Assembly (NCBI GenBank): GCA_943354045.1
Contig: CALRBF010000001.1
Coordinates: 4,046-68,045 of the forward strand
Length of the DNA: 64,000 bases
DNA from: Parcubacteria group bacterium
GTDB lineage: Bacteria > Patescibacteriota > Minisyncoccia > SW-4-49-11
Direction: 5' to 3'
The notes below the pieces were generated by a model, which saw only the letters and a list, made by a program, of their open reading frames with translations, ran no database searches and was not told the DNA's origin. This document shows, in pieces, positions 2,573-46,338 of this stretch (position 1 is the first letter of the stretch; every line of letters begins with the position of its first letter). Position numbers and translations under genes: made by a program.

Positions 2573-2914
2573 TTATGAAACTGCCTCCTCTGCTTCTGGC
2601 AATATGTCTAATCTTCTCTCATCTATTTCTTCTCCCGTATGAATATCTCTTCCATATGTTCCTGCTTCAATTCTAGCTAAAGCTCTATCAATTTTTCCTA
2701 ATGTCTCTTCTAGAGTTCCCTCTACAAGCAGATCTCGCTCATAATTAACTTGTTCTTGAGCATTATCTTCTTCATCCTCGCTGATATTCTGATATTTAAC
2801 TTCATACCCAGACCCTATACTGTCTTTAGTTGCTACAGAATCAAGCTCTGAGATAATTCTTTGTCTTTTTTCAAGAAGTCTATTACGATAGATTTCTAAT
2901 TTTACTGAATCCAT
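2573..2914 (-). CDS. DksA/TraR-family protein lacking the C4 zinc-finger cysteines
   Basis: 113 aa. A coiled-coil is followed by 'ALARIEAGTYGRDIHTGEEIDERRLDILPEA', which is a DksA/TraR C-terminal motif with the Cys residues replaced. Confidence 0.55.
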   Translation of the reverse strand: MDSVKLEIYRNRLLEKRQRIISELDSVATKDSIGSGYEVKYQNISEDEEDNAQEQVNYERDLLVEGTLEETLGKIDRALARIEAGTYGRDIHTGEEIDERRLDILPEAEEAVS

Positions 2915-2951
2915 ATATGTATACTAATTTTATACTTACTATTATAGTATA

Positions 2952-3716
2952 TTATACTAGAGAAGTAAATACAAGTAATCCCAATAATATACTAATTAAT
3001 ACTATTCTAGCTAATATTTTTTTAGTATTTAATGTTCTCAAATAAATATCCCGAAATATGGATAGAGAGAATATCAAAAAAGTAGTTAATATAATTGATT
3101 GAGTAAGATGTGTTAATGGCAAAACTCTAAGCCCAATGAATAGCTCAACAATTATTATAGAGAGTATTAATGACATAATACGATAAAACACACGATCAAC
3201 CCCATACATCCATAAAATATATAATGAAATATTGAGTGTAGAAATAAAAGCAAGAATACCAAGTATGATTGGTGATATTGTTCCAATAAATATAGACCCA
3301 AACAAAAAGGCATAAGTGGAAAAGGATACAAATATACTTCCAGATATAATAATTTGGCGCATAAATTCTGAATTGCGATATTCTTTATGAGAAATAATAT
3401 CTTGTACAAAGAATAATCCCAATCCTAAAGCAATTACAATAACAGCAATGGGTACGGTATTCCCTTTTATAACTTGCATAAATAGAATCGATGCGAGAAT
3501 AAAATGCAAAGGAATTTGATAAGACCTTATTCTGTACCGATATAAAAAGACTAAGTATGCGATTAATCCACATAATCCTAATATTCCAAATGAACTCAAT
3601 AGAGGCTGTATCTTTTGAATTGTATAAAGATAAGCGGGAAAAAATCCAATGAGCAATATAATATTCCAAAAATTTTTCTGGAATATTATTTGTTGTAACC
3701 ATTTCACATACTGCAT
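2952..3716 (-). CDS. Polytopic integral membrane protein (~8 TM), function unknown
   Basis: 254 aa. The hydrophobic segments are spaced like a multi-TM protein. It is the last membrane gene of the 2573-9337 operon. Confidence 0.55.
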   Translation of the reverse strand: MQYVKWLQQIIFQKNFWNIILLIGFFPAYLYTIQKIQPLLSSFGILGLCGLIAYLVFLYRYRIRSYQIPLHFILASILFMQVIKGNTVPIAVIVIALGLGLFFVQDIISHKEYRNSEFMRQIIISGSIFVSFSTYAFLFGSIFIGTISPIILGILAFISTLNISLYILWMYGVDRVFYRIMSLILSIIIVELFIGLRVLPLTHLTQSIILTTFLIFSLSIFRDIYLRTLNTKKILARIVLISILLGLLVFTSLV

Positions 3717-3719
3717 ATA

Positions 3720-5621
3720 TTATCTCCGAAACTTGATTGATCTTCCTTGTGGTATATTATTTTTTGTAGGTTCTTTAGGTACCATGAGATTTGACTTTAC
3801 TTCAGATAATAATTCATCTAAAAGTCCATCTACACTTAATTTTTCTTCTTGGCTTGAGACATGTAAATCTTTTAGGAATTTTTCTTTAATTAAATATTCT
3901 GATTCTCCATAAGCGGAAGTCGATCTACTGAATACCTCTTTTAATTTTTTTGCCATTATGGGATTTACATATTCGACTGGATCAGAAGGAGGAATATCTT
4001 GCTTCACTTCTGGAATAACTTCTTTTTTTTTCTCCTCTACTTGTGTGGCAGTATCAGCAAGTTGGGTGGATATAGGAGGAATAATCTCCTCCTTAGGGAT
4101 AGGATGATTTTCTATTTTCTCATCTATTTTGGGAGTCGTATCTATAGGCTGTAATGGTAGTATAGGAGTGATATCAGTCGCATCTTTAGGTATAGGATTT
4201 TCTTGCTCTGATTTTGGATAAACTATAGGATTAGGTTTATTTGATGCATTATATGACTTTGATTTATCATTATAAGGTCTGGATTTATTATCTCTGTCTG
4301 ATGAGGCTTTTGCTTGGGGCTCTGGAGATTTTTTAATGTCTGTATTCTCAATATGCGCTCCTCTCAGCGAAGATTTAGCATTTCCATATGTTTGACGAGA
4401 GAATTCAATAATTTTATCCCTATTGGATATCAACTCTGGCTCTGGATCAGGAAGTGTATCCGCACTAAAAGGCTGACTGGTAACTCCATCTATCATAAGT
4501 TTCAAATATATTCTCCATTTTGGAAGATTAACTAAATCTTCAATAGTAAGCACTGGAGTAAATTCTCTTTCCATAAATTCAGCATCAGCTGCTCCAATTC
4601 TAAATACAATAGTAGTACCAACATTTCCAAATACTGCACCTCTTACAATTTCAGATAATTGCTCTACATATTGATGGGCCAAAATAAGACTTAATCGATA
4701 TTTGCGAGCTTCTGATAATATTTCTGCAAAAGAATCAGTAGAAAAGTTTTGAAACTCATCGATATAGGCATAAAAATCTTCTCTTTGATTCTCTGGTATA
4801 TCCACACGACTCATAGCAGCTAATTGCATTTTGGTAATCATCATCGCTCCCAGTAATTGAGCTCCACCCTCCCCCACAGCACCCTTAGAAAGATTCATAA
4901 TCAAAATTTTCTTTTGATCCATAATTTCACGCAAATTAAAAGAAGATTTTGCCTGTCCAATAATATTACGTATCAGTGGAGACGATGTAAATTGACCTAC
5001 TTTATTTTGAATTGGTGAAATAGCCTCAACCAATAATTTGTCTGTATATCCATCAAATTCATTTAACCAAAATTGCTTTAATACAGGATCATGCATTTTA
5101 TATACAATATTAGCTCGGAAATTCTTATCTACCAGAATACGCATAATATCAAGCAAAGTACTTTCTTCATTTTCAAGCAAAGTCAATATGGTATTGCGAA
5201 GTATATATTCAAGTCTTGGCCCCCAAGAATCCGCCCAAATTTTCTTAAATACTCCCACCAAACCATCGGATACAATATGCCTTTGATTTTCTGGCACATC
5301 ACCAAGTACATTAAAGGCAATAGGAAATTCTAAATCTTGTGGATTAAAATACACTACATCTTTTATACGATGTTCTGGAATATAATCAAGTAAGGCATCC
5401 GCCACATCTCCATGGGGATCAACAAAAGCAAGTCCTGATCCATTTCTAATATCAGACACCGCCATATTCAATAGAAGAGAGGTTTTACCCATACCTGTTT
5501 TTCCAATAATATGCATATGTCGACGCCTATCATCTCGCTTAATACCAAAAAGTCTTCCCTGACCATGAAAATTAGTCTTAGCAACAATGGTAATATCTTT
5601 ATTTGTTTGATTTTCACTCAT
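3720..5621 (-). CDS. TraD/TraG/VirD4-like (type IV coupling-protein family) P-loop ATPase, with no N-terminal membrane anchor and a C-terminal K/P/E-rich low-complexity tail
   Basis: Walker A 'IIGKTGMGKTS' at residue ~41. Coupling-protein signature 'VDPHGD'. Walker B-like 'YIDEFQNF'. 'LILAHQYVEQL' resembles the TraG-D_C region. The last ~230 aa are a disordered, Pro/Lys-rich tail. Confidence 0.7.
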   Translation of the reverse strand: MSENQTNKDITIVAKTNFHGQGRLFGIKRDDRRRHMHIIGKTGMGKTSLLLNMAVSDIRNGSGLAFVDPHGDVADALLDYIPEHRIKDVVYFNPQDLEFPIAFNVLGDVPENQRHIVSDGLVGVFKKIWADSWGPRLEYILRNTILTLLENEESTLLDIMRILVDKNFRANIVYKMHDPVLKQFWLNEFDGYTDKLLVEAISPIQNKVGQFTSSPLIRNIIGQAKSSFNLREIMDQKKILIMNLSKGAVGEGGAQLLGAMMITKMQLAAMSRVDIPENQREDFYAYIDEFQNFSTDSFAEILSEARKYRLSLILAHQYVEQLSEIVRGAVFGNVGTTIVFRIGAADAEFMEREFTPVLTIEDLVNLPKWRIYLKLMIDGVTSQPFSADTLPDPEPELISNRDKIIEFSRQTYGNAKSSLRGAHIENTDIKKSPEPQAKASSDRDNKSRPYNDKSKSYNASNKPNPIVYPKSEQENPIPKDATDITPILPLQPIDTTPKIDEKIENHPIPKEEIIPPISTQLADTATQVEEKKKEVIPEVKQDIPPSDPVEYVNPIMAKKLKEVFSRSTSAYGESEYLIKEKFLKDLHVSSQEEKLSVDGLLDELLSEVKSNLMVPKEPTKNNIPQGRSIKFRR

Positions 5622-5630
5622 ACTATTTGA

Positions 5631-6911
5631 TTACTCATTGATAATAGGAAGTCCCATAGGGGGATTTGCTTTTTTAGCTTGTACTCTTTTAAGAGTTGAG
5701 GTGGTAATTGATCCTCCTGGAAAATGAAAGATAGTTGTTAATTCCTCCGTATTAAAAATAAATTTTGTACTCGCAATTTTACGCTTAATATAACTATCTA
5801 ACATTAATATTTTACGGAGACGTTCTTTGCCACGAATAGGTCTATTAAAGAAATCACTTACTATAGTTATACTATCTTCATTTGGTTTAAAAGAATTAAG
5901 ATTAGAATCATTAAATTGTTTTAAGCTACCAAGTAATGCTTTTGGTTGATTTGGGTTAAATCGAGCTTTTGGAGCTACATATACAACTCTTAAAGCTGTT
6001 TTAAATCCTGGTTTAGTCATACTAAGTTCAATAGTCTCTATAATATTTTTTTTACCTGGAGTCAAATTTTGATCTATACCAAATTTTTGTTCTTTTGGAG
6101 TAGGTGCTGATGGGGCTTTAACAATACCAAATGAAATAAATTCAATAATAGGAGCTATATAGATATCTAGGAATGTTCTCTTATCTTCAAAGTCACGATC
6201 CAGTAGCTTATCTAATTCTTTTTTACTCACCTTATTCCATGTATCCTCAAGAGACTCAATAGGTAATTGCATCCATAATTGCTCATCTGGCTCTATCCCA
6301 GCCATTACTTCTAATACCTGAGACAATGGATCATTGATATTAGCATCAATACTTGGATCAAGGAATTGTTGATAGGTGCGAATTGGATAAGCATCGTTTT
6401 TTGCCATACCAAGATCTACACCAAAAAGATCATATTCAACCTCTAATGTATCATTGGTAAATCCTTGGGTATAATCAGCAACCTCCATTATTTCCACCTC
6501 CGGAAAAGCCCCATATATACCGTTTTCTACCATTTTACGATATTTGACATGAGTTCTTATGAGAAAGTGAATATCTCCTCCAATTGATACAATTTCCAGA
6601 GAAAACATATCTGGAAGAGCTCCTTCTATATTAGTCTCCCACCAAGAATAGGAAGTTTGCCCCCCATGTAGGGTAGTCAAAAATTGCTCCATTGATTTAG
6701 GCGTTTTTTCTTCTCCTTTTTCTAATACAATTTCAAGTAATACAAATTGCAAATTATTACGAATCCAATTCCCTCGAATAAAATCAAAATAAAATGTTCT
6801 CAGTATAGTCCATAATATTATTGGAAGCCAAATCCACCAAAAAGATAGAATAAATTCAAAAATAAAAAATGCCTGATTTATGTTTATATAAGATAAAGTA
6901 TCACTAGGCAT
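5631..6911 (-). CDS. Membrane-anchored protein of unknown function (N-terminal TM hairpin plus a ~380-aa soluble domain)
   Basis: 426 aa. N-terminal 'FFIFEFILSFWWIWLPIILWTIL'. It is separated from the downstream ATPase gene by only ~10 bp. Confidence 0.55.
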   Translation of the reverse strand: MPSDTLSYININQAFFIFEFILSFWWIWLPIILWTILRTFYFDFIRGNWIRNNLQFVLLEIVLEKGEEKTPKSMEQFLTTLHGGQTSYSWWETNIEGALPDMFSLEIVSIGGDIHFLIRTHVKYRKMVENGIYGAFPEVEIMEVADYTQGFTNDTLEVEYDLFGVDLGMAKNDAYPIRTYQQFLDPSIDANINDPLSQVLEVMAGIEPDEQLWMQLPIESLEDTWNKVSKKELDKLLDRDFEDKRTFLDIYIAPIIEFISFGIVKAPSAPTPKEQKFGIDQNLTPGKKNIIETIELSMTKPGFKTALRVVYVAPKARFNPNQPKALLGSLKQFNDSNLNSFKPNEDSITIVSDFFNRPIRGKERLRKILMLDSYIKRKIASTKFIFNTEELTTIFHFPGGSITTSTLKRVQAKKANPPMGLPIINE

Positions 6912-6966
6912 ACATTTGTGTCTATTATATGTATCAAGTATATCAGGAAATATTTTGTTCGTCTAC

Positions 6967-8109
6967 TTATAAAGTTGTCTTTTCTAATAAATCGGTAAGC
7001 CTCGTATTAAGCTCTTTACCTGCAGTATGTATATCCTTGTCTGAGGCATAACTATATACCAAAACTCCTTCATCATATTCACCATCCAAATCTGAAAGAA
7101 AATGAGCCATATCAAATTTAGAAAAATCTAAATATCCTTGTTTGGTACTATTCCCATTATCAAGCAAAATATGTAATCCCAAGTTGTCACTTGGTAAATA
7201 GGACAATATTGTTCGATATATCAGAGGTATATCCTTAGCCTTGGTATGAGTTTTAGAAAAATCATGGGGAAAAAGCTTAGAATACGCATAACGATGTTTC
7301 ACTCCTTGAATAGTGATTTCTATCCATTCTAAATGAGCTAGAATACGGCCAATAAGTAATCTCTGACTATCTGTAATAAGACTATTAAGAGCATTATCAA
7401 TAGCGGTATAATCAACTCCTAATTCTCTCATCTCAATAATTGCTTTGTCTACTGCTAATGTACGAGATGATAATAATAAAGAGAATAACAGGGCATTACA
7501 AATATTTTCATTCCAAGCATTGGGATAATACGTTTTAATATAGTCAATAATAATCTCAGCATTAGAATTATAGGCTGAATTATATATTGTTTTTTCAGAA
7601 TAAGGATGCTTTATATCAAAGGCTGATATAGCAAGAGAAGGTGTATCAATCAATATATGGGGATAATCTGTAAAATATTGTCCTAATTGAGTCCAGTTTT
7701 GTGTATCTAATGTTACTACCAAATCATAAGAATATTTGCCAGGAGTAATAGTAACTAATTCTGATTGGAATTTTTCTGAAGGTGAATTGAGATAAATCCT
7801 GAGCTCAGAATCTGTTCTATCATATTTGAGAGATTCAATAGGATATTTGGTAGTATCAATAGAAATTATTGACTCTACAGAACCTTGTAATATTGAAGTT
7901 ATCATAGAAGTATCAATCATAGTCAATACTTGCTGTATATGAGTATATGAGGATATAATACTTACTTGTTTTCCCTCAGATTGTAATAAAGAAGCTAAAG
8001 CTAGGGCTGATCCTAATATATGTATTCCATGAATTTCTGGAATTGGAATTACAATTGACTGAGCATTTTGTAATGTCTCATGCATTAATGTCAAATCTGA
8101 TACAGCCAT
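6967..8109 (-). CDS. DHH/DHHA1-like (NrnA/RecJ-fold) protein with degenerate catalytic motifs
   Basis: N-terminal 'SIVIPIPEIHGIHILGSALALASLL' aligns to DHH motif I-II but without the Asp/His residues. C-terminal 'DIHTAGKEL' resembles the DHHA1 GGGH..AAG motif. Confidence 0.4.
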   Translation of the reverse strand: MAVSDLTLMHETLQNAQSIVIPIPEIHGIHILGSALALASLLQSEGKQVSIISSYTHIQQVLTMIDTSMITSILQGSVESIISIDTTKYPIESLKYDRTDSELRIYLNSPSEKFQSELVTITPGKYSYDLVVTLDTQNWTQLGQYFTDYPHILIDTPSLAISAFDIKHPYSEKTIYNSAYNSNAEIIIDYIKTYYPNAWNENICNALLFSLLLSSRTLAVDKAIIEMRELGVDYTAIDNALNSLITDSQRLLIGRILAHLEWIEITIQGVKHRYAYSKLFPHDFSKTHTKAKDIPLIYRTILSYLPSDNLGLHILLDNGNSTKQGYLDFSKFDMAHFLSDLDGEYDEGVLVYSYASDKDIHTAGKELNTRLTDLLEKTTL

Positions 8110-8172
8110 ATACTACTTTTATATAGAGCATCATTATACCAAAATACTTATATATAGTCAAAAAATATTCTC

Positions 8173-8490
8173 CTAAGCTTGCCTTAATAAATCTTTTATC
8201 CCCTGTATAAATTCAGATAATTCTTTGTCTAGAATTACATTTTGTATATCGTTCTCTGAATCTAATGCAATTTTTATTATAGATTGATTATTAATAGTAA
8301 TATATATATACCGTTCTCTTACAAATAATGCACGAGGATATGAGATCAGAACAGGAATATAATTGTTTTCTGTATTTACAAAGTTAATGATAAAAGACCC
8401 ATATTGCAATAATTCTTGTGCAATAAATTCATAACTATCTATATGATTATAGGCTTCTCCATAGTGTGGTGAGAGATTTGCTGAATTCAT
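8173..8490 (-). CDS. Hypothetical protein
   Basis: 105-aa ORF packed tightly in the operon, with no recognisable motif. Confidence 0.45.
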   Translation of the reverse strand: MNSANLSPHYGEAYNHIDSYEFIAQELLQYGSFIINFVNTENNYIPVLISYPRALFVRERYIYITINNQSIIKIALDSENDIQNVILDKELSEFIQGIKDLLRQA

Positions 8491-8493
8491 AGT

Positions 8494-9117
8494 TTAGAAT
8501 TTACTAATAAGGAAATAATATAATGCTGGTTGATAGTCTTCCGCCCATTCACGAGCCTGAGATTCACCATCGCTATCAGGTGGGAAACAATTCCCCATCA
8601 AACGATAACAATAATCTTGTAAGCTTTTACTATAGGTATATAAAACCGGTATTGCAGATTGTTGAAATAATGGTATTGCATAATAAAAGTCGCCTATTTT
8701 GATATTATGAATAAAAGGGGTTTTGATGGCAAGTAAAATCATTTTAATAATTCTTGTTGCCATACCTACATCTCGAGTTTTGGTTTTACCCATAAAGTAA
8801 TTCCCATTTTGTAGTAATTTTTCTTCTCCGTTAGAATGGGCATAACTCCGAATATTTGGCTCAATTCTAGAGTCCATATAGGCATAATGATCTAACATTG
8901 AAGGCTGAGTATATTCATTCTCTTCATGAGGTGGTAATAATTCAAACACTTCTGTGTGTTTTTTGACTACAGAAGCTGGAATTTGGACCATTCCATATGG
9001 CTTAACTTTTACATAAGAATCCAAATCTCGCATATATTCAATAATATCTCCACGACGCAAATATGTCATGGTATGAATATATTCGAAATCTTGATTGAGT
9101 TTATACCTGTCAGCCAT
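8494..9117 (-). CDS. Hypothetical protein
   Basis: 207-aa ORF. It is 3 bp downstream of the preceding gene's stop codon. No motif recognised. Confidence 0.5.
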   Translation of the reverse strand: MADRYKLNQDFEYIHTMTYLRRGDIIEYMRDLDSYVKVKPYGMVQIPASVVKKHTEVFELLPPHEENEYTQPSMLDHYAYMDSRIEPNIRSYAHSNGEEKLLQNGNYFMGKTKTRDVGMATRIIKMILLAIKTPFIHNIKIGDFYYAIPLFQQSAIPVLYTYSKSLQDYCYRLMGNCFPPDSDGESQAREWAEDYQPALYYFLISKF

Positions 9118-9118
9118 A

Positions 9119-9337
9119 TTATGTTAACAAAAATATAACTTGAGTAAGTACGAGAGATGCCCCAATACTCCATATTCCCATTACAATAAAAGAAAAACTT
9201 CTCAGCTCACCTTTTTCATTTGGAGACATTTGTTGAATAAATCCAGTGCTTACTAATACAAACATAGTAGCTATCGTACTAGTAACTGCGATTGATATCA
9301 GGGATAATGCCCATACTTGTATAAATTCTGTCGCCAT
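9119..9337 (-). CDS. Small membrane protein (2 TM). First gene of the operon.
   Basis: 72 aa, with two hydrophobic helices. Its stop is 1 bp from the next gene's start. Confidence 0.4.
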   Translation of the reverse strand: MATEFIQVWALSLISIAVTSTIATMFVLVSTGFIQQMSPNEKGELRSFSFIVMGIWSIGASLVLTQVIFLLT

Positions 9338-9458
9338 AGTCTCAAGAGCTGATTATTAAGCGTCCTCATGCTATATAGCTTTGAGAACTTTTAAATATAT
9401 CATATCCATATTATTTTGTCAATAGCAAATTACAAGTAAAATGACAAGAGCTGTCAAA

Positions 9459-9489
9459 TAAAAAAGATGCTGTATGATACAGCATCTTT
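9459..9489. terminator. Bidirectional rho-independent terminator hairpin
   Basis: 'aaaaaagatgctgtatgatacagcatctttt' is a perfect 11-bp palindrome flanked by A and T runs. It lies between divergent/convergent transcription units. Confidence 0.5.
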
Positions 9490-9881
9490 TGAGACAAGAA
9501 GCTATCAATGAAATTAAACAAAAGATGGAGAAGTTATTAGAATTTTGAGCTCATGAATAACTGCCATTGATTCATTGGGAAAATCAAGAGTTACTCGACT
9601 TGAAAGAGCACTTTCCGTAAACTCTCTTCCTGCGTAATGAGATCCAAGAATCGCGACAATATCTTCATCCCAAAATAGTTTTTCTCTAAAGTGTGCTTCT
9701 ATAATTTCTTGGGAGGGAAGCTTGAGCATGGTGTCCATAAAAAGAACGGGTGTACATATCGGTATTATATCTATACAATATATATTTGTCAATAGTCTAC
9801 ATCTATTTATTATTAAAAGAAAAATCGGCTCCTGGAGAAGCCGATATGTGATACGCAGCTGTTTAGAGTACAGCATTAAAT

Positions 9882-10151: not shown

Positions 10152-11123
10152 TCAAGCTTTTTTATACCAAGCTCTATATATAATTACCAATAATGGGGAG
10201 GCGATGAATATAGATGAATAGGCTCCAAAGAAAGTCCCGAGGAATAAAGCTAAAGCAAAATATTTGACTGATGCCCCTCCAAAAAAGAATATAGCTCCCA
10301 GCACTACCAATAATGAAACCGAGGTATTAATAGATCTGGTAAAGGTTTGATCAATGCTTTTACCTACTGTCTCTTCAAAATTATCTCCTCCATAACGACG
10401 TACATTTTCTCGAATTCTATCAAAAACAACAATAGTATCATTGATGGAAGCCCCTAATATGGATAATAAGGCAATCACAAATAATATATCGATTTGTAAT
10501 ATACCAAGATAGGAAATATAGGCAAATACTCCTGTTGGTATTACAATATCATGAATAAGAGCAATAATAGCTGTGAGTCCATAATAGCGAGAAGGTACTG
10601 GATAGGAAACTCCACGGAATACATAGGTTATAAAGATTACAATCACAATTAATACAATGACAATAGCAATTAAAGCTCTATTTTTTAACTCTGATCCAAT
10701 ACTAGAGCTAATTAGAGAATTAGATTGTTCTTTTATAATATCAGCTTTTGCAATTTCCTCAGTATCATATTTTACTGAAATATCTTGCTTTAATGTAGTG
10801 TATTGCTCATCATTAATAGGTTCTAATTCAATACGAAATACTGCATTGTCTTGTTTTGTCACAATTCTTGGTTTTTGTCCTTTTTCGCTAAGAGCTTTTG
10901 TTAATTCCTCAGTTGATAAATTAGTTTGACTCGCAATTTTCCATTCTACTGTTCTCCCGCCAATAAAATCAGGTCCTAGTCTCAGACCAAATACTACAAG
11001 ACTAATAATAGAGGTAATTATTAGTACCAATCCTATTATTAACCATATTCTTGTATGTCGTATAATCCACATAATTATTTCTGTAAGGTAATAAAGCGAC
11101 CAAATTTTGTCTTTAATAACCAT
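10152..11123 (-). CDS. secF: Protein-export membrane protein SecF
   Basis: Six TMs with a periplasmic domain. C-terminal SecF-like TM bundle. Immediately downstream of secD, with an overlap. Confidence 0.8.
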   Translation of the reverse strand: MVIKDKIWSLYYLTEIIMWIIRHTRIWLIIGLVLIITSIISLVVFGLRLGPDFIGGRTVEWKIASQTNLSTEELTKALSEKGQKPRIVTKQDNAVFRIELEPINDEQYTTLKQDISVKYDTEEIAKADIIKEQSNSLISSSIGSELKNRALIAIVIVLIVIVIFITYVFRGVSYPVPSRYYGLTAIIALIHDIVIPTGVFAYISYLGILQIDILFVIALLSILGASINDTIVVFDRIRENVRRYGGDNFEETVGKSIDQTFTRSINTSVSLLVVLGAIFFFGGASVKYFALALFLGTFFGAYSSIFIASPLLVIIYRAWYKKA

Positions 11124-12625
11124 TCTTGATATCCTAGCAAGGTTACTAATAATCTACTCACTGTAATAGCTGTGAATAAACTCATTCCAATCCCAATAAC
11201 AAGAGTAGTTCCAAATCCTCTCACTACTCCAGAAGCTAAATAAAATAAGATAAGAGCAGATATTAAGGTAGATATATGAGAATCTCGAATTGATTCCCAA
11301 GCTCGCTTAAATCCTTCTTTTGCACTTGCCTCAAAATCCCGCCCATTAGCGAGTTCCTCCTTCATACGCTCGAATATCAAGATATTACCATCCACTGCAA
11401 TGCCAATACTTACAATAAATCCGGTAATCCCCGCTATTGTCAAAGTAAATCCTAGTATATTAAATATGGCTAGCACCAATATAGCATATACTCCTAAAGC
11501 AATTACCGCAATCACCCCCAAACCTCGATAAAAGAGTATCATAAATATAGCAACAAATAATAATCCAAATCCTCCAGCTCTAATACTTTGATATAATGAC
11601 TCAGTACCGAGGCTTGCTTGTATAATTTGTTGTGAAGCAATGGTAATTGGTACAGGCAAGGCTCCTGAATTCAAATAATCAACCAATTCCTTGGCACCTT
11701 GAGCAGTAAAGTCTCCAGATATTGTTGCCTGTCCATTAGGTATTTCTTGATTAATTCGAGGAGCACTCACAACTTGACCATCTAGAACAATATAAAGAAT
11801 TTTTCCAATATTATCCCGGGTAAATTCAGCAAATTTCTTCTTCCCCTCATCATCAAATTTAATACCTACTTGTGGTTGTGCAGTTTGTGGATCAAAAATA
11901 ACTTGAGCATTATCAAGATTTTGTCCTGTTAATACTGGAGATCCGATAAAATCAAGATTTTTTAAATTTTCTAGATTCTCTAGATTACCGCTTTGTATCT
12001 GCTCTATAATTTTTTGCCTTTCTTCTGGGGGTCTTACTTTATCAAAAAACTCTAAAGTTGGAGTTTGTCCAATTTGCTTAATTGCTTGCTCTGGATCTTT
12101 AATCCCTGCAAGCTCTACTACTAATCGGGTTTTATCTCCTTGTTCAATATAAATACGTGGCTCACTGACTCCAAAAGAATCTACTCTTTGGGTTACAACT
12201 TTTTGTAAACTCTCTAAGGCTTGTTTTTGATCAGGTCCCGCTATCTCTTTTAAATCAACATCATATACCACTCTTACTCCCCCCTGTAAGTCGAGACCTA
12301 GTATAAAGGTATTATTTGGTAATGGTGGAATATCTCTTTGAGATAGCCATTGATCAAATCCTCGAGACTTAAATGGTAAGTTTCCCCATTGAGATACCTT
12401 GTCTGAAGCTTTATTAATCCCATCAACAACCTTATTAATTGGCTGTGGATAAATATAAAATAATGCAAATAATGTTAATATAAGAACTCCAATTGATTGT
12501 CTTATGACATTTCCTTTTTTGGTTTTCCCTTTAATACAATACCAAATAAATCGTCCTATTTTATCAAATGGGTACCAAATTATTTTGAGTATATTCCCTG
12601 GTAGTCGTTTCAGCCAATTCAGCAT
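11075..12625 (-). CDS. secD: Protein-export membrane protein SecD
   Basis: 516 aa. Large periplasmic domain plus a C-terminal RND-like TM bundle ('GLGVIAVIALGVYAILVLAIF...'). Confidence 0.8.
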   Translation of the reverse strand: MLNWLKRLPGNILKIIWYPFDKIGRFIWYCIKGKTKKGNVIRQSIGVLILTLFALFYIYPQPINKVVDGINKASDKVSQWGNLPFKSRGFDQWLSQRDIPPLPNNTFILGLDLQGGVRVVYDVDLKEIAGPDQKQALESLQKVVTQRVDSFGVSEPRIYIEQGDKTRLVVELAGIKDPEQAIKQIGQTPTLEFFDKVRPPEERQKIIEQIQSGNLENLENLKNLDFIGSPVLTGQNLDNAQVIFDPQTAQPQVGIKFDDEGKKKFAEFTRDNIGKILYIVLDGQVVSAPRINQEIPNGQATISGDFTAQGAKELVDYLNSGALPVPITIASQQIIQASLGTESLYQSIRAGGFGLLFVAIFMILFYRGLGVIAVIALGVYAILVLAIFNILGFTLTIAGITGFIVSIGIAVDGNILIFERMKEELANGRDFEASAKEGFKRAWESIRDSHISTLISALILFYLASGVVRGFGTTLVIGIGMSLFTAITVSRLLVTLLGYQEWLLKTKFGRFITLQK

Positions 12626-18258: not shown

Positions 18259-19962
18259 CTATTGCGTAATACTTTGGAGTACTGTATTAGATAATCGTGT
18301 CGGCCAATAGGTTAGGCGGCGGATGTGGCCGTTAATCTGCAGCGCAGTCCCTTCAATTTTGCCAATCTCTAAAGTATTGATGCCAGTGGGCAATATGACA
18401 CTAGTGTCAGACAATATGCTTTGCTCGACTGGCCTCATCAGTGCAGTATCGTCAGTTTTGTAAGCGAAGGCTATTTTCGCAAGATTGTTCGCAGAGGGTA
18501 TAGAATAGTTACTAGTAGCTTGAGTTACACCTCCGGTGGTGACTGAATATGTACCTGCTCTTATTGTGAACCTGTCGTTGTTTGGTGAGATTGAGTTGTG
18601 GAAGTTGAACAAGCCGTTATTACTGCCAGCGGCTCCAGTGTGACTATATAGCTGAAGTGCAGTACCCTCACTCTGGTTATACCAACCTCCTGGAGTTGTG
18701 GTAAAGTTAGCTCCTGTTATACTAACATTATCCGCATTTCTAGTAGTAACTCCGGTAGTATTAGGATTTATTAAATAGCTTGTTGGAAAACTTCCCAACT
18801 CAAGCTGCCCTCCCCATACAAATATCCCAGAACTTCCATCTCCTGTATATTTCATTTGAGCCGGGGCTCCTGTATCAGACAAATTATTAGGAGTCCCAAT
18901 ACCAACTTGTAAATTAAAGGGGCCTGTAACTGTGGGGGTGGCCGTTACAAAAGCTCTATACCAGCCATTTCCTACTGGAACAATTTTAGTCTGAGTTGTG
19001 TTGCTGGAGACCCCTGTGGATAAATCTAGCCAGCCATTAGCCCCCCAGAAGGCACCTTCCGTAATATTGAGACTATCAAACCAGATAGTAGCAAATGTTC
19101 TCTCCGCTGCCTTTAAATATACCGAAAATGTATATGTAGTACCTGCATTTAATGTAGGTGCTTTAGACACAGATTGTCTTCCGGTTTGTCCATTATTCCC
19201 TATTAATTTATCCGCCGCCTGACTTCCATCAGGAGCAGTGGCAACATTAAGACTTGATGTTGAGGCTGAAAATGCAGATGTCCCAGCAATATTCTCAGAT
19301 TCAAAATAATTATTAGTTCTTGATTCCTCCACCAACAACCCCAGGCTCTCCCCGGTCGTAGGGTTGTGATCGAATCTTGCTTCATTAGCTACTGCTGTCT
19401 TGATGAGGCCATCTTCTCCCACATAGGTACCTGTACTTGCTCTTGTAAAGCTTATGAGATTATTCCCACTTACTCCATCTATTAAACTCTTGTTCTTTGC
19501 AAAATTTAAGTCTAAACTTGGTGTTCCTCCTATATTCCATATAGTATCTCTTGGATGACTTACTTCTATATTATTATTACTTCTCCTTACATAATAATTA
19601 TTACTATCTGATTGCGGTATACTTGCTATATAGGTTGGTACTAATACTCTTAGATCTGTTTTGTTATTACATAAATTAGCTGGGTTTAATGTATCTGTTG
19701 ATTTTTGGCTCCCTGTATTACATATTACTTTTGCTCCTATATCTATTCCTGTTGGGTATTGTCCATTATTATCTATACTATATTGTTGTATTGCTTTTGT
19801 TATACTATTTATCTCTGATCTTCTTTGTGCACTTCTTGCTGATTCTATTTGTTTATTCGGGTTTATTGCCACCAATACTATTGCTGCTAATATCCCTATT
19901 GCCGCTATTACTAATAATATCTCGAGTAGGGTGAAACCTTTGTTTCGTTTGCTCTTTATCAT
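18259..19962 (-). CDS. Large type IV pilin-like (pseudopilin) protein
   Basis: N-terminal class III signal 'KGFTLLEILLVIAAIGILAAIVLVAINP', followed by a ~530-aa beta-rich G/T/S-rich domain. Confidence 0.7.
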   Translation of the reverse strand: MIKSKRNKGFTLLEILLVIAAIGILAAIVLVAINPNKQIESARSAQRRSEINSITKAIQQYSIDNNGQYPTGIDIGAKVICNTGSQKSTDTLNPANLCNNKTDLRVLVPTYIASIPQSDSNNYYVRRSNNNIEVSHPRDTIWNIGGTPSLDLNFAKNKSLIDGVSGNNLISFTRASTGTYVGEDGLIKTAVANEARFDHNPTTGESLGLLVEESRTNNYFESENIAGTSAFSASTSSLNVATAPDGSQAADKLIGNNGQTGRQSVSKAPTLNAGTTYTFSVYLKAAERTFATIWFDSLNITEGAFWGANGWLDLSTGVSSNTTQTKIVPVGNGWYRAFVTATPTVTGPFNLQVGIGTPNNLSDTGAPAQMKYTGDGSSGIFVWGGQLELGSFPTSYLINPNTTGVTTRNADNVSITGANFTTTPGGWYNQSEGTALQLYSHTGAAGSNNGLFNFHNSISPNNDRFTIRAGTYSVTTGGVTQATSNYSIPSANNLAKIAFAYKTDDTALMRPVEQSILSDTSVILPTGINTLEIGKIEGTALQINGHIRRLTYWPTRLSNTVLQSITQ

Positions 19963-19997: not shown

Positions 19998-22316
19998 TTA
20001 TACTCTAATTCTCATCTTTTTAAAAGAAAGATATCCCCACCAAATAAGATTTAAGATTATAGCCGAACTAAACCATATATTTTCGTGGGGCCACTCGGTA
20101 AGAGTTTTATACCATTTTGTATCACTAACTCCATCAATAAGTTGAGCCTCCCCTTTTAACTGAAACTCATCTAAACCTTGATATTCATATTGTTTTGCAT
20201 TATTATCAGCATTCTCAATATTTGAAGCTATACTTATATCCTTTTTTATATCTGATACTTTGGCTATTTTGAAAGCTGGTATTACGCGAATTTGTGAGCT
20301 ATTCCATGGAATAACACGTATTTCTCCATCATATATTTCAGTAAATCCTGTAATCACAATAGTATCCCCTTTTTTCATCTTGGGCTTAGTTATGATATCA
20401 GAATATAATTTTATAGGGGCGGTATATTTATTATTAAATACTACTAATTTGGTTTTCGTATTCGTATCCAAAATCCCATTTACTTTGACCAGTTTACCCC
20501 AATCATCGGTATTAATAGTTTTGATATTTTCTGGCTTTATAGTAATTTTTTGAGTGTCTATAATACTAATATCCTCGCTGGATACGGTTTTCAGATATTG
20601 TTGCGTATCGGTATTATGCCATTCTGATTTTATTCTCACGATATCTCCTTCTTTGAGACTTGGGAAACGCTTTTGTCTATCATATACTTTGACAATTCGG
20701 CTATTATTCTGAATATAAAAACTGGTATCATTAAGTGTATTAGGGGGAATAATAATTTGTCCCTGTATTTCTAATAATTCTCCATCTTCAATTGATATAA
20801 TATTCTCAATAGTATCAATAAATCGATACTTTTTACTTGTGTCATCCATTGCTTCAGTAAATATACTGGAGGCATTGGGAGTAAGGGTATTAGTCCAACC
20901 CCAATTTTGTAATAGCGGTATATATGATAAACCTTTTTTAGCCTTGGTATAGGAGGTCGTGGATTGAATTTGATTATAATTATCGGTTAGAGTGACGGTT
21001 TCACTGGTATTATTGAGGGATATTTTGCTCTCATCTTGATTCCAGACTCTATATCCTTTGGCAGGGATAATACCTGAGAGGGTGTAACTTTTGGCTAAAT
21101 CAGATAATTTCCAGTCAGTTATATCTATGTCCTTATCTGTGGTATTATTAAGCTCAATGAATTCACCTCCCTCTAAGGGATAGGGATAAATTTCTGATAA
21201 AATAATGCTCCCTATACTATACTTGGGTAATGGAGGTGTAATTGGAATTATGGGTATAGGATTAGGTGCTGGAATAGGATTGGGGGTTGGGGTTATGCTA
21301 ATTGGAGCAATATTCATTGCATTTGGTGAAGGAATAGTATTCCAAATCCAATTATTGTCAATTACCATATAACTTGAGCCTTTTTGAGAATCTTTCATAC
21401 TATAATCTACTTGTGATTGTATAGTATTATTGGGGTCATACAAAATCACTGAGTCATTATCATTATTCAGAATAATAGTAAGTGCATTACCGTCTTCCAA
21501 TACGACAAATCCCTTAGCGGGAATAATTCCTGATAATGTCTGTATTGCGGATCCCCCATTTGGTATATCATCTAATTTCCAACCACTAATATCTATATCT
21601 TTATCAGTGATATTAGCAAGTTCTACAAATTCTTTTTTACCCTCAGCTGGATTTGGGTAAATTTCGGATATGATAATCCCCTCATATACAATGGGGGGAG
21701 TTAGAGGTGTTACGGGAATGATATTAAGTGGAGATAAAGACTTTATTTCCCAAGAAAAATTGTTCATTTTATGCAAAGACTCTCCCTGTTTGGTTATCGC
21801 TGGCCATTTCCCTACAAAGTTCACCGCATCTATCGTAATATCCTTATCATTACGAAGCTCTATATAAGCCCCTGCCGTATTACTAAGAGATCCAAAATTA
21901 GTACTTGTTACATTAATAACTTTATTGAGTGGCGTGAGGCTAGTTTGGGTGGTTGCAATTTTGCGAATTACAATATAATCTGTGATATTACCAGTAAGGG
22001 GAATAATTTTATCACCCGCTCCAGATACTATTCTCAGAGACCAACCTGTTAATGTGATTGGAATATTACTAGGATTTTTGAGCTCAATAAATTCATCATT
22101 GGCATCAGTCACATTATCATCAGACCATATGGTATAACCGGTATAATTAATTTCATTGATTTCCACCTCCTGAAAAGCAAAAGAAACTTGGGGGGAGAAC
22201 AAAAACAGCCCCAATACAAGGGCTATTTGATTAATTCTGAGGAGATTTTTTTGTTTTGTCCAGGTCATTGCTATCTTTGTTTGGATCTTTTTTATTGGGA
22301 TCATAAGTATATGCAT
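19998..22316 (-). CDS. Lamin-tail-domain (LTD) repeat surface protein. The likely start is the internal Met at ~22268.
   Basis: Signal peptide 'ALVLGLFLFSPQVSFA'. Several LTD-like units ('ISEIYPNPAEGKKEFVELANITDKDIDISGWKLDD', 'EFIELKNPSNIPITLTGWSL'). Pro-rich linker. C-terminal TM. Confidence 0.65.
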   Translation of the reverse strand: MHILMIPIKKIQTKIAMTWTKQKNLLRINQIALVLGLFLFSPQVSFAFQEVEINEINYTGYTIWSDDNVTDANDEFIELKNPSNIPITLTGWSLRIVSGAGDKIIPLTGNITDYIVIRKIATTQTSLTPLNKVINVTSTNFGSLSNTAGAYIELRNDKDITIDAVNFVGKWPAITKQGESLHKMNNFSWEIKSLSPLNIIPVTPLTPPIVYEGIIISEIYPNPAEGKKEFVELANITDKDIDISGWKLDDIPNGGSAIQTLSGIIPAKGFVVLEDGNALTIILNNDNDSVILYDPNNTIQSQVDYSMKDSQKGSSYMVIDNNWIWNTIPSPNAMNIAPISITPTPNPIPAPNPIPIIPITPPLPKYSIGSIILSEIYPYPLEGGEFIELNNTTDKDIDITDWKLSDLAKSYTLSGIIPAKGYRVWNQDESKISLNNTSETVTLTDNYNQIQSTTSYTKAKKGLSYIPLLQNWGWTNTLTPNASSIFTEAMDDTSKKYRFIDTIENIISIEDGELLEIQGQIIIPPNTLNDTSFYIQNNSRIVKVYDRQKRFPSLKEGDIVRIKSEWHNTDTQQYLKTVSSEDISIIDTQKITIKPENIKTINTDDWGKLVKVNGILDTNTKTKLVVFNNKYTAPIKLYSDIITKPKMKKGDTIVITGFTEIYDGEIRVIPWNSSQIRVIPAFKIAKVSDIKKDISIASNIENADNNAKQYEYQGLDEFQLKGEAQLIDGVSDTKWYKTLTEWPHENIWFSSAIILNLIWWGYLSFKKMRIRV

Positions 22317-28496: not shown

Positions 28497-28615
28497 GTCC
28501 TTGCAATGATCTACTTTCCCCACGAGGAGTATCATCGACTCACAGAGGCTTAACTTCTAGGTTCGGAATGTAACTAGGTGTACCCCTCTGTGATAAATCA
28601 CAAGGACATTTTTGT
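28497..28615 (-). rRNA. rrf: 5S ribosomal RNA
   Basis: The reverse complement aligns to bacterial 5S ('...CCCCAC..CATCG...ACTTCTAGGTTCGGAATG..ACTAGGTG..ACC...'). It is ~105 nt downstream of the 23S 3' end. Confidence 0.7.
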
Positions 28616-28836
28616 TCTCGAACATAAGATTATCTAAAAAAGATAATCTTATGCTCCAGAATTGTTGTAAATTTAGGTAAAGCAACACTACATAACCTTG
28701 AGTATCAATCAAAAGTTAAAAAGATGAGTTTTAGCGACATTAGTATCACTCGACTGAACACATTACTATGCTTACATCTGTGACCTATCAACGTGGTAGT
28801 CTTCCACGGTCGCATGAGCTACCTAATCTTGAGTAC

Positions 28837-28869
<33 letters not shown>

Positions 28870-29056
28870 AGACCAAACTTAGCTACCCAACAGTGCCATT
28901 GGTATGACAGCTGGTACACCAGAGGTTTGTTCATCCCGGTCCTCTCGTACTAGGGACAAATTCTCTCAAGTAGCAACGCCTACAGAAGATAGAGACCAAC
29001 CTGTCTCACGACGGTTTGAACCCAGCTCGCGTGCCCCTTTAATTGGCGAACAGCCA

Positions 29057-29087
<31 letters not shown>

Positions 29088-30045
29088 GGACGAGCCGACA
29101 TCGAGGTGCCGAACCTGGCCGTCGCTATGGACGCTTGGGCCAGACTAGCCTGTTATCCCCGGGGTAACTTTTATCTGCTGATCTTCCACCTTTCTACAAA
29201 GGATGGTCGGTTCACTAAGTTCCACTTTCGTGACTCAACTAAAGTACCCATTTCTAAAAGAAACACATACAATAGAGGTGTAATGAAAACCATTACAGCG
29301 CGACATACACGTCTTGCAGTAAAGCTAGCTTATGCCTTTGCACTATCTCCCGAATTTCCATATCGGGATAGCTAACCTTATAAACACCTCCGTTACTTTT
29401 TAGGAGGTGAGCGCCCCACTCAAACTACCCACCAGGCACTGTCTCTCATAGTATTAGTATGAGGTTAGTATTCTCATAAATCAAGGGTGGTATCTCACTG
29501 GCGACTCCTTCTTGTCTAGCGACAAGCTATCAAAGTCTCCCACCTATTCTGAACAAAATAAACAAAAATACAATACCAAGCTATAGTAAAGCTCCACGGG
29601 GTCTTCTCGTCTTTCTGTAGGTAAACGGCATCTTTACCGTTATTGCAATTTCACCGGGCAGTTGGTTGAGACAGTTTCCCAGTCGTTACTCCATTCAAGC
29701 GGGTCTGAATTTACCAGACAAGGAATTTCGCTACCTTAGGACGATTATAGTTATCGCCGACGTTCACTGGCGCTTCGGACAGTCAGCTTTCACTGCCATC
29801 GTTAACGTTCCAGCACTGGTCAGGAGTCACCCCCTATACTTCCTTCTTGTGAAGTTAGCAGAGAGCTGTGTTTTTGATAAACAGTCGCTGGGAATCTTTA
29901 GCTGCGGCCTATATTGCTATAGGCAGACCTTATCCCGAAGTTACGGTCGCTGTTTTGCCGAGTTCCTTAACCAACTTTCACCCGTTCACCTTGGTCTTCT
30001 CGACCTACCCACCTGTGTCGGTTTTCGGTACGGTCGACAATGGAT

Positions 30046-30130
30046 TCCCTCCCTAGTTTTATCTACAATAGACTTTTAGATTTTATAATATAAATATTAT
30101 TGTCTATATCTAAACAAAACTAGGGAGGGA
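30046..30130 (-). repeat. Perfect 15-bp stem with a ~55-nt AT-rich loop, inserted in 23S (expansion segment or IVS-like hairpin)
   Basis: 'tccctccctagtttt'...'aaaactagggaggga'. It replaces the E. coli sequence just 5' of 'CGTACCCCAAACCGACACAGGTGG'. Confidence 0.6.
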
Positions 30131-30624
30131 CATAGTGGCTTTTCTTGTCACCTTGGGTCTCTTATATTGAATTCTCTCGCGAGTCTTCTTTATGCGTTTT
30201 TCGGGCTTTAATGACTCCAAAGATTTGCCTCAGAGTCAGCTCTACAGAAACACATATGCCTCAATCCATTAAGACACATAAAATACCATGATGCGTCCCC
30301 ACATTTACAAGCCATTGCCGGTACAGGAATATTAACCTGTTGTCCATCGGCTACCTCCGTTTCCGAAGTTAACCTTAGGCCCGACTAACCCCCCGATGAT
30401 TATCATTGCGGAGGAATCCTTAGGATTTCGGTGGCTCAGAATTTAACTGAACTTGCGGTTACTTATTCCAACATTCTCACTTCCTTGCGCTCCACCAGCC
30501 CTCACGGGTCCAGCTTCAGTGCACAAGGAACGCTCTCCTACCATTATAATACTAATAAATTAATATATAATCCGTAATTTCGGTACTACACTTGAGCCCC
30601 GTTACATTTTCAGCGCATATTTTC

Positions 30625-30903
30625 CTATCCCTCCTCAGTTCTGGGATCGAGCAAGCTATTTTTAACTCGCTCCATCAACTGATATTTGGCACTCCCATGA
30701 GATTTTAGTCTCTTTTCTCTTATCAATGCATCTTTTTTGATTCGATACACTTCAAAGTATATGAGTGTCCATTGACCTTTATGTTTTTTCGTATACTTAC
30801 TCTGCCTAGAATTATGTTCTTCTAATCTTTTTTTGAGATCTTTAGTACTCCCTATATAGAGAGTATAATCTGTAGAGTTTTGAATAAGATATACTATATA
30901 CAT
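30625..30903 (-). CDS. Small GIY-YIG nuclease (YhbQ/UPF0213-like) encoded inside the 23S rRNA gene, in the same sense as the rRNA
   Basis: 'YIVYLIQNSTDYTLYIGSTKDLKKRLEEHN......KHKGQWTLIYFEVYRIKKDALIREKRLKS' matches the GIY-YIG / YhbQ pattern. The last codons and the stop codon lie within the inverted repeat. Confidence 0.8.
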   Translation of the reverse strand: MYIVYLIQNSTDYTLYIGSTKDLKKRLEEHNSRQSKYTKKHKGQWTLIYFEVYRIKKDALIREKRLKSHGSAKYQLMERVKNSLLDPRTEEG

Positions 30904-30937
30904 ATAGATTCATTATACCAGAACTGAGGAGGGAATA
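30626..30937 (-). mobile_element. Inverted-repeat-bounded insertion (IVS-like stem-loop) carrying the GIY-YIG ORF within a 23S helix
   Basis: Left arm 'tatccctcctcagttctgg' (30626-30644) pairs with right arm 'ccagaactgaggagggaata' (30918-30937), giving 19 bp with one bulge. The flanks resume conserved 23S sequence ('GTGCGTAATAGCTCAC' ... 'GCGCTGAAAATGTAACGGGGC'). Confidence 0.5.
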
Positions 30938-31557
30938 GAGTAGTGAGCTATTACGCACTCTTTAAAAGATGGCTGCTTCTAAGCCAACTTCCTACCTGTC
31001 TCAGAAAATACACAACTTTTCCCACTTAGTGTAGTTTAGGGACCTTAATTGACGGTCTGGGCTGTTTCCCTTTTGAACATGGAGCTTAGCCCCCACATTC
31101 TAACTGCTAATCTATAATCTACTGGTATTCGGAGTTTGGTTAGATTGGGTACCCGAAGGCCCCAGATCCATTCAGTGCTCTACCCCCAGTAGGGATCAAT
31201 TAACGCTAGCCTAAGAGCTATTTCGGAGAGAACCAGCTATTACCAAGCTCGATTGGAATTTCTCCTCTATTCACAGCTCATCACCTAGAATTGCACGACT
31301 AGTGTGTTCGGGCCTCCCTTTGATGTTACTCAAAGTTCACCCTGGCCATAAATAGCTCGCCTGGTTTCGGGTCTACTCCCATCAACAATTCGCCCGTTAA
31401 GACTCGATTTCTCTATGCCTCCGTCCTTTTGAGACTTAAGCTGCTGATGAGACGTAACTCGTTGGATCATTCTTCAATAGGCACGCCGTCACCCTTGCGG
31501 GCTCCGACTCCTTGTACGTAAATGGTTTCAGGTCTATTTCATTGTCCTCTCGGACTG

Positions 31558-31594
<37 letters not shown>

Positions 31595-32263
31595 ACATTA
31601 AGTAATATTTAGCCTTACCAGGTTAGTTCTGGTGGATTCAGACAGGGCTTTCTTTTCCCGTCCTACTCAGGAATAGAACCGATATATATACACTGTTTTC
31701 GATTACTCGGCTATCACGATCTATGGCTAAGCTTTCCAGCTTACTCATCTAACAATATATATATATCCTCCTCACGGAATGTTCTACCCTACAACCCCTC
31801 TAGACCGAAGTCTGAGGTTTGGGCTCCTTCCGTTTCGCTCGCCGCTACTAAGGAAATCACATTCGTTTTCTTTTCCTCCGGGTACTGAGATGTTTCACTT
31901 CCCCGAGTTCGCTCCCTAATAACTAGGATACTTGGGCATTACCCCAAGTGGGTTTCCCCATTCGGATATCTCCGGATCAAAGCCTGATTAGCGGCTCCCC
32001 GAAGCTTATCGCAGCTAGTCTACGTCCTTCTTCGCTTCTTAATGTCAAGGCATCCCCCATTTACGCTTACCAACTCATCTTTTTAAATTCTGATTTATAC
32101 TTTTGGTGAAAGTAGTAAAATTGCATTTACCTAAATTTACTTGTGAATGAACCCTCTTATAGAAACAGATGATAATATCTCAAAGGTTGAACTTTAAGAG
32201 GTCATCTCTGTCGCCATATTGCTCCGTAGGTGAGCTGAGTGTGAAGTTGCGAGTACGATATTT

Positions 32264-46330: not shown

Positions 46331-46338
46331 AATATGTT

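Follow-up and report, generated by a model that had tools for sequence, protein, structure and literature searches.

Patescibacteria, the candidate phyla radiation (CPR), may account for a quarter of bacterial diversity and live off material from host cells. The only species open to genetics depends on a type IV secretion system (T4SS), whose gene cluster was described as holding no recognisable coupling protein, and a near-universal VirD4-like gene with no known role lies elsewhere in the genome. The 64,000-nucleotide stretch analysed here, hereafter the window (Parcubacteria group bacterium, assembly GCA_943354045.1, contig CALRBF010000001.1), carries a coupling-protein-like ATPase gene, g3 (3720-5621, minus strand, 633 aa), within a row of eight minus-strand open reading frames (ORFs), g1 to g8. 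Which of these genes form a system with the ATPase, and what would that system do? The initial annotation had taken all eight for one operon encoding a dedicated apparatus. Its claims are partly supported: it was right on the type of ATPase, on its nativeness and on its domestication, and wrong on scope, since the conserved unit comprises two genes, g3 and its upstream neighbour g4 (5631-6911, minus strand, 426 aa), rather than eight. It also missed this adjacent gene as the source of a membrane anchor and of a VirB4-type N-terminal domain. We consider it rather probable that g4-g3 is a two-piece ATPase of the VirB4/VirD4 superfamily, namely a domesticated, relaxase-free coupling ATPase that is membrane-tethered via g4.

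A soluble ATPase of the coupling-protein type

The ATPase core of g3, with an inserted all-alpha domain, spans residues 1-~420 (nt ~4362-5621, minus strand), and residues ~430-633 (nt 3720-~4330, minus strand) make up a tail rich in K/E/P/S, of which a short stretch at the C-terminal end is conserved. The protein contains the motifs GKTGMGKTS, VDPHGD and ILAHQ, all three as first reported, and a hydropathy scan found no transmembrane (TM) segment in it. Its assignment to the coupling-protein family held in profile searches: g3 passes the gathering cut-offs of Pfam TrwB_AAD_bind (32.1 bits, cut-off 20.5) and TraG-D_C (25.9 bits, cut-off 22) and, marginally, that of DUF87, and the PDB sequence matches of g3 or of its family profile were TrwB and DotL only (3.4e-7 and 4.4e-5, respectively, in the profile search). 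The VirB4 models AAA_10 and CagE_TrbE_VirB gave no match to g3 in Pfam, and NCBIfam VirB4_CagE (TIGR00929) scored 12.8 bits against a cut-off of 643. The NCBIfam models of the archaeal DNA-import ATPases CedB and CedD matched weakly, in the Walker A region only and far below their cut-offs. Alignment of the g3 profile with the single sequences TrsE and TrsK by hhalign was weak and uninformative.

In the AF2 model of g3 (pLDDT 87.7), seven predicted helices (residues 111-221) lie between core strands 89-92 and 239-243, forming an all-alpha domain inserted in the nucleotide-binding domain, as in type IV coupling proteins (T4CPs). Structure comparison gave values of 28.5 for the C-terminal domain of a Gram-positive VirB4, 28.0 for the DptH C-domain, 25.2 for TrwB, 23.0 for DotL, 22.4 for HerA, 16.7 for FtsK and 16.6 for TcpA. 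As judged from its sequence, g3 is a soluble P-loop ATPase of the VirB4/VirD4 superfamily, of a coupling-protein-like type. Hexameric assembly, DNA-stimulated ATPase activity and substrate recruitment, which are traits of T4CPs, may extend to g3.

The family counts at least 8000 homologues, and the named ones among those listed are Patescibacterial; the ATPase core is 60-66% identical across Patescibacterial classes. Most CPR orthologues of g3 end in a treble-clef zinc finger, PF23477 (CxxC-x17-CxxC; for example P0070, residues 438-472), in place of which the g3 of the window carries its low-complexity tail of ~200 aa.

The partner g4 has a predicted VirB4 N-domain fold

A hydropathy scan of g4 identified one N-terminal hydrophobic helix of ~28 residues (residues ~14-40). 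It had been described as a TM hairpin, but a single span fits the sequence better. Structure prediction followed by Foldseek, which the initial annotation had proposed for this protein, pointed to VirB4: the AlphaFold model (57 homologues; pLDDT 84.9, pTM 0.79) returned chains of TrwK as the only return among 13 matches at E<=1e-3. The remaining fold matches include no P-loop protein, so the match to TrwK would have to be to the N-terminal domain of VirB4. On this model, the cytoplasmic domain of g4 has the VirB4 N-terminal-domain fold, its best fold match, and is not NurA-like. In their predicted folds, g4 and g3 together recreate the architecture of VirB4, the motor being one that sequence models class as a coupling protein.

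The C-terminal linker motif of g4, NTEEL..HFP...PP..LP, is conserved, and in naturally fused proteins it runs straight into the N-terminus of the ATPase. Sequence comparison of the g4 profile with the PDB produced chance matches only. PF26449.1, which we take to be a Pfam DUF family, is precomputed on 120/120 listed g4 homologues, one of them 97% identical to g4; g4 itself and P0121 had no match in a Pfam copy that appears to lack the PF26449 model. A literature search for DUF8128 or PF26449 found no papers.

The g4-g3 pair is the conserved unit

A genome-collection scan yielded 45 loci from many CPR lineages, which were compared by tblastn and ORF clustering; 43 of them had enough upstream sequence to be informative for the pair. 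The initial annotation had suggested testing the eight-gene order in relatives, and of that order only g4-g3 is conserved: in 41/43 informative loci, g4 either directly precedes g3 or forms one ORF with it. The pair spans Paceibacteria, Falkow-, Moran-, Colwell-, Kerfeld-, Berkel-, Peri- and Gottesmanbacteria. Because g1, g2 and g5 are confined to one clade and g6-g8 to four loci, we conclude that the conserved unit is a two-gene g4-g3 module in housekeeping synteny, not an eight-gene operon.

Single ORFs of 724-969 aa whose N-terminal part resembles g4 and whose C-terminal part resembles g3 were found in L027, L032, L035, L036, L037 and L039-L044, including Berkelbacteria, Peribacteria and Gottesmanbacteria. 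Woesebacteria L038 was left out of this set, its ORF running to within 46 nt of the contig end with an incomplete N-terminal part. These fusions provide Rosetta-stone evidence that the products of g4 and g3 act together, and they place the soluble domain of g4 in the cytoplasm.

Synteny of the pair with secDF is conserved across Patescibacterial classes. In 18 loci (L014-L035), the gene just upstream of the pair encodes a sigma70_r4 + HARE-HTH protein of ~280-420 aa, often preceded by secD-secF (for example L017:2578-3732). The gene downstream of the ATPase in other lineages is nadD, efp, thymidine phosphorylase or a membrane glycosyltransferase, and in L015, L017 and L020 it encodes a polytopic protein unrelated to g2. 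A second, apparently fused ATPase paralogue lies beside dnaX, ~8-10 kb upstream, in L014 (45-620) and L018 (141-1529), and tandem ATPase copies occur in L036 (6519-11497) and L042 (9929-14364). Several metagenome-assembled genomes (MAGs) with close relatives of the window's Paceibacteria-like locus are titled "uncultured Gammaproteobacteria" or "Saccharibacteria" (L003, L011, L014, L016, L018 and others), taxonomic labels that are probably wrong.

Plasmid relatives occupy a coupling-protein position

Outside Patescibacteria, tblastn against plasmids recovered weaker relatives (<=37% identity) in Sulfitobacter, Streptomyces/Embleya, Bacillus, haloarchaea and Sulfolobus. On the 28-kb plasmid of Bacillus sp. 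BC1-43 (NZ_CP086062), a 904-aa fusion joins a g4-like N-domain (hhalign to g4, 98.4%, E 1e-14) to the ATPase; after it come a Replic_Relax relaxase, TcpC, TcpE and, as a protein of its own, an AAA_10 VirB4-like ATPase. The Embleya plasmid (NZ_CP108778) carries an 812-aa fusion of the same layout, with a VirB4-like ATPase on one side and a Replic_Relax gene on the other, and its N-domain aligns to g4 with lower probability but colinearly over the whole domain. In haloarchaeal Natrinema pNATPE01 the modules are split, with a 382-aa g4-like gene (97.7%, E 1.4e-12) directly upstream of the ATPase. The g4 profile alignment to the plasmid relatives includes the C-terminal EL..H.P...PP motif. These data show that members on mobile elements occupy the coupling-protein position beside a true VirB4 in Gram-positive conjugation operons. 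A pLS20-type identity of the Bacillus relatives was considered and rejected, the T4CP of pLS20 being canonical, with 2 TM segments.

On the relatives from Sulfitobacter, Embleya, Bacillus and Natrinema, the g3 profile reaches 157-422 bits; with TrwB it reaches 32 bits and with TrsE 16, and it finds no match in TrwK or TrsK. This gap indicates that the g3 family is a distinct subfamily.

The closest relative in the plasmid collection is a stand-alone 395-aa ATPase on the Sulfitobacter mediterraneus plasmid NZ_CP081110 (L046:7986-9173; 37% identity, 422 bits to the family profile), with transposases on both sides and no g4-like gene beside it. It may have been acquired by horizontal transfer from a patescibacterium.

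Comparison with known systems and with published work

Canonical T4CPs (TrwB of R388, VirD4, TraD, DotL) carry an N-terminal TM domain in the same polypeptide, whereas g3 has none, and the family profile recognises TrwB only at the score given above. The ATPase thus has no TM segment of its own, as first described, but is not truly anchor-less: its TM helix comes from the adjacent g4 or, in the many lineages with fusions, from the N-terminus of the fused orthologue. Relative to canonical T4CPs, the g3 family adds a VirB4-N-domain-like module of ~370 residues, as a separate gene or fused, and linkage to a relaxase or VirB4 is seen only in the plasmid relatives; neither the window's large ORFs nor the CPR loci show it. 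Compared with VirB4 (TrwK of R388, the T. pseudethanolicus VirB4 C-terminal domain, TrsD+TrsE of pSK41, VirB3-VirB4 fusions), g3 shows no sequence-level membership, and in the Bacillus and Embleya plasmids the g3 family co-exists with a separate, true VirB4. The plasmid relatives from Bacillus, Embleya and Natrinema (157-273 bits with the g3 profile) have the same two modules in the same order as the window. Those of Bacillus and Embleya sit in conjugation operons with a relaxase, VirB4, TcpC/TcpE or PrgI and a cell-wall hydrolase; the pair of the window, by contrast, lies on the chromosome without neighbours of this kind, and its conservation is far stronger.

The window is a segment of a compact, low-GC Patescibacteria chromosome. 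The GC content of g1-g8 is 0.29-0.34 against ~33-34% window-wide, without anomaly, in line with the native composition first noted. Among the large ORFs of the 64-kb window, which include penicillin-binding proteins (PBPs), SecDF, pilin-like proteins, a subtilase and TopA, there is no VirB4, relaxase, channel or other T4SS gene. The claim that no other T4SS part is present therefore stands for VirB4, relaxase and channel genes but not for g4, with its predicted VirB4 N-domain fold. The pair lies in native chromosomal DNA, and the proposal of a domesticated system is likewise supported.

Our literature search on Patescibacteria and coupling proteins found only a 2025 T4SS survey and a review. 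The survey (Quinonero-Coronel et al. 2025, PMC12102498), in the sections available, reports VirB4 in 2,417/3,035 Patescibacteria genomes and 5,713 VirD4-type T4CP homologues in 2,918/3,035 genomes, 148 of them near virB4, together with few relaxases; its authors state that exaptation of the orphan T4CPs cannot be excluded. These orphans share with g3 a near-universal distribution, ~2 copies per genome, a location away from virB4 and the lack of a relaxase, so far as the available sections describe them, and g3 almost certainly belongs to the same gene family. The extra paralogues described above are consistent with the ~2 homologues per genome given there. Orphan VirD4-type homologues were therefore already known from this source, which makes our core claim less novel. 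The PF26449 partner, the split/fused architecture, the VirB4-like N-domain and the TM-less nature of the ATPase are not described in those sections, and we found no description of the first three in the literature.

A proposed mechanism and its alternatives

Starting from the modelled folds, the adjacency, the natural fusions, the distinct subfamily, the context of the relatives and the secDF synteny demonstrated above, we propose a mechanism for the pair. The g4 protein would sit in the membrane with its N-terminus out and its C-terminus in, following the positive-inside rule, and would tether g3 at the inner membrane face through its C-terminal linker motif, rebuilding the fused protein. The complex would oligomerise like VirB4 or TrwB and would spend ATP to recruit or drive a macromolecular substrate. 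C-terminal tails of T4CPs serve substrate or partner recognition and, by analogy, the variable C-terminal tail of g3 may do the same. An ancestral conjugative coupling ATPase would have been domesticated in Patescibacteria without a relaxase; its present role might be that of the missing coupling ATPase of a chromosomal, mating-pair-formation (MPF) FATA-like T4SS encoded elsewhere, or be independent of a T4SS.

Several observations weigh against this proposal. Peptide words of the query served as seeds in finding the 45 loci, which makes them a biased sample; L016 and L028 carry the ATPase without an adjacent g4, and the fused proteins of L037 and L039-L044 are without any predicted TM helix, indicating that tethering is not universal. 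The Foldseek TM-scores for g4 are low (~0.35), and hhalign of g4 against TrwK, pSK41 TrsD and the Bacillus AAA_10 VirB4-like protein returned nothing, so that the link between g4 and VirB4 is a structural one, drawn from a predicted model. The support for a function of the pair is computational comparison throughout. Finally, the t4cp homologue of Southlakia epibionticum, a species whose T4SS cluster lacks recognisable coupling and relaxase proteins according to Wang et al. 2023, is dispensable for epibiotic growth while T4SS genes are essential (PMC12102498, available sections), which argues against an obligatory role of g3 in that T4SS, if this homologue is a g3 orthologue.

We also tentatively entertain the possibility that g4-g3 forms a third branch, of ancient origin, within the VirB4/VirD4 superfamily, combining a VirB4-type N-domain with a coupling-type motor and fixed in Patescibacteria as a pair of core chromosomal genes for a function other than conjugation. 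If so, the pair would be a living intermediate bearing on the origin of coupling proteins from VirB4, and it could bring DNA or protein taken from the host across an obligate epibiont's envelope, acting as the unrecognised coupling ATPase of the essential T4SS or independently. In any case, the pair offers a testable object: its complex is defined, its docking motif is predicted, and fusions of its two halves occur naturally. It ties the orphan ATPase to genuine coupling-protein positions in the conjugation operons of Gram-positive bacteria and adds an architecture relevant to the divergence of VirB4 and coupling proteins. It also points to annotations that are probably in need of correction, since PF26449 proteins go by the name "hypothetical" and the ATPase is labelled as a stand-alone T4SS DNA-binding protein.

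An exapted translocase independent of any T4SS is credible, though on balance unlikely. Under this explanation, g4-g3 would work alone or with envelope machinery such as ComEC or type IV pili, possibly in DNA import by a nucleotide auxotroph, in chromosome handling at division or in the export of specific cargo. The wider distribution of the ATPase (2,918 genomes against 2,417 for VirB4), its almost complete lack of linkage to VirB4 and the exaptation raised by the survey's authors agree with it, as far as the available sections go, but MAG incompleteness could account for ATPase-positive, VirB4-less genomes. The motor is extremely conserved, the conserved synteny with secDF and the sigma-like gene indicates a core cellular gene, and the C-terminal zinc finger of most orthologues is compatible with nucleic-acid binding. 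However, no ComEC or pilus gene is adjacent in any of the loci examined, the relatives with a clear context are all in conjugation operons, and the CedB/CedD matches, which would fit DNA import, are confined to Walker A at scores far below the cut-offs.

The dedicated eight-gene translocation or host-contact apparatus of the initial annotation, with g2 and g8 as channel partners of the ATPase, now appears improbable. Its genes are tightly spaced and share one orientation, but such packing is the local norm, because 38/46 window ORFs >=150 aa lie on the minus strand. The polytopic g2 starts 3 bp after g3, each of the clade's 11 loci has g1 and g2 after g3, and an unrelated polytopic protein occupies the downstream position in L015, L017 and L020; outside this one clade, however, g1, g2 and g5 are absent, with housekeeping genes in their places, and g6-g8 are found in 4 relatives only. 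Promoter-like sites inside the cluster and the failure of g2, g5, g6, g7 and g8 to match any secretion-system family also argue against it, and the lack of conservation largely refutes it. A further reading, in which the pair is either left over from an integrated conjugative element or a repair or defence ATPase of the HerA/DptH type whose partner lies outside T4SSs, is very improbable indeed. The native GC content, the chromosomal synteny across classes, which points to vertical inheritance, and the lack of an integrase or relaxase near g3-g4 led us to reject the former. As for the latter, no nuclease or Dnd/Sir2-type partner lies nearby, neither HerA nor FtsK is the closest sequence and fold, g3-g4 shows no NurA partner or FtsK gamma, the sequence profile prefers TrwB and DotL, and the best fold match of g4 is the VirB4 N-domain; a HerA-NurA system was rejected, g4 not being NurA-like.

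Neighbouring genes and transcription units

All eight minus-strand ORFs have exactly the coordinates first given to them, and their tight packing was confirmed, with measured gaps of 1-63 bp rather than 0-60 bp. The six genes other than g3 and g4 stand in a compact array of housekeeping genes (secDF, PBPs) as clade-specific neighbours of the pair, not as parts of a machine.

Downstream of the ATPase, g2 (2952-3716, minus strand, 254 aa) encodes a polytopic protein with 8-9 TM segments in a hydropathy scan, close to the ~8 first proposed, and it matches no family in Pfam or NCBIfam. Together with g1 it follows g3 in the same 11 loci only, where the ATPase identity is >=74%; phmmer found no distant g2 relative downstream of the ATPase in other lineages, returning the 11 closest loci only. 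A role of g2 with g3 is possible. The product of g1 (2573-2914, minus strand, 113 aa) had been called a Cys-less DksA/TraR-like protein. It does lack cysteine, and with it the C4 zinc finger, and its coiled-coil part resembles DksA. Its similarity to NCBIfam yteA (1.9e-14, 54 bits, cut-off 134.4) and DksA_like (2.7e-10, 40.6 bits, cut-off 105) remains far below the curated cut-offs, and no Pfam model matches, zf-dskA_traR included. The protein is probably a Cys-less DksA/YteA-like factor acting in the RNA-polymerase secondary channel. The suggested echo of the F-plasmid TraR/TraD arrangement is weak, the linkage of g1 to g3 existing at clade level only.

Upstream of the pair, g5 (6967-8109, minus strand, 380 aa) had been described as DHH/DHHA1-like with ablated catalytic residues. 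Pfam lends this no support (no match at E<=0.1), nor does NCBIfam, but the g5 profile weakly matches NrnA (8iu7, E=0.014) and a DHH protein (3dev, E=0.02) in the PDB, with D-I-K-H-P aligned at the position of the replaced DHH motif. The family is narrow (53 proteins, 3/53 called nanoRNase by JGI), and this weak evidence suggests that g5 may be a degenerate DHH/NrnA-like protein. It occurs in 10 related loci only, in the same clade as g1 and g2, where it takes the slot held elsewhere, in 18 loci, by the sigma70_r4 + HARE-HTH gene. Identity of g5 with the widely conserved upstream gene c3 was rejected, c3 being that sigma70_r4 + HARE-HTH protein.

Further upstream, g6 (8173-8490, minus strand, 105 aa), g7 (8494-9117, minus strand, 207 aa) and g8 (9119-9337, minus strand, 72 aa), the last with 2 TM segments by hydropathy as first described, have no significant Pfam or NCBIfam matches. 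They are present only in the four closest relatives (L001, L002, L005, L011), whereas in L006, L007 and L009 secF is followed directly by g5. The genes g6-g8 are thus inserted between secF and g5, and are probably transcribed as a unit of their own. Two strong promoter-like sites were located, one upstream of g8 (9394-9422; TTGACA-17-TATATT with a TG extension, 11/12 matches) and one in the gap between g6 and g5, downstream of g6 (8133-8161). The bidirectional terminator said to end the operon at 9459-9489 corresponds to a hairpin (9462-9490; 13-bp stem, 3-nt loop, flanking A/T runs), terminator-like in both directions; it stands, however, at the 5' side of the minus-strand cluster, between the upstream ORF and g8. 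The co-directional array runs past g1 into a PBP gene in relatives. Taken together, the internal promoter-like sites, the continuation of the array and the locally normal packing make a single eight-gene operon doubtful.

Other features of the window

The ORFs of secD (11075-12625) and secF (10152-11123) overlap by 49 nt (11075-11123) when called from the first start codon; the true start of secF may be further downstream. A 23S rRNA match (28498-32080, minus strand) covers 3361 nt against a 2925-nt model, indicating ~430 nt of insertions. A 5S rRNA gene adjoins it and the 64-kb window holds no 16S rRNA gene, so that the rRNA genes are unlinked. Three large minus-strand genes (18259-19962, 19998-22316 and 43811-46402) encode candidate surface or host-contact proteins. 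Two of these proteins, of 567 aa and 863 aa, bear a type IV pilin N-terminal methylation motif; a 772-aa lamin-tail-domain protein adjoins the 567-aa one, and the 863-aa one contains 12 DUF5122 beta-propeller repeats.

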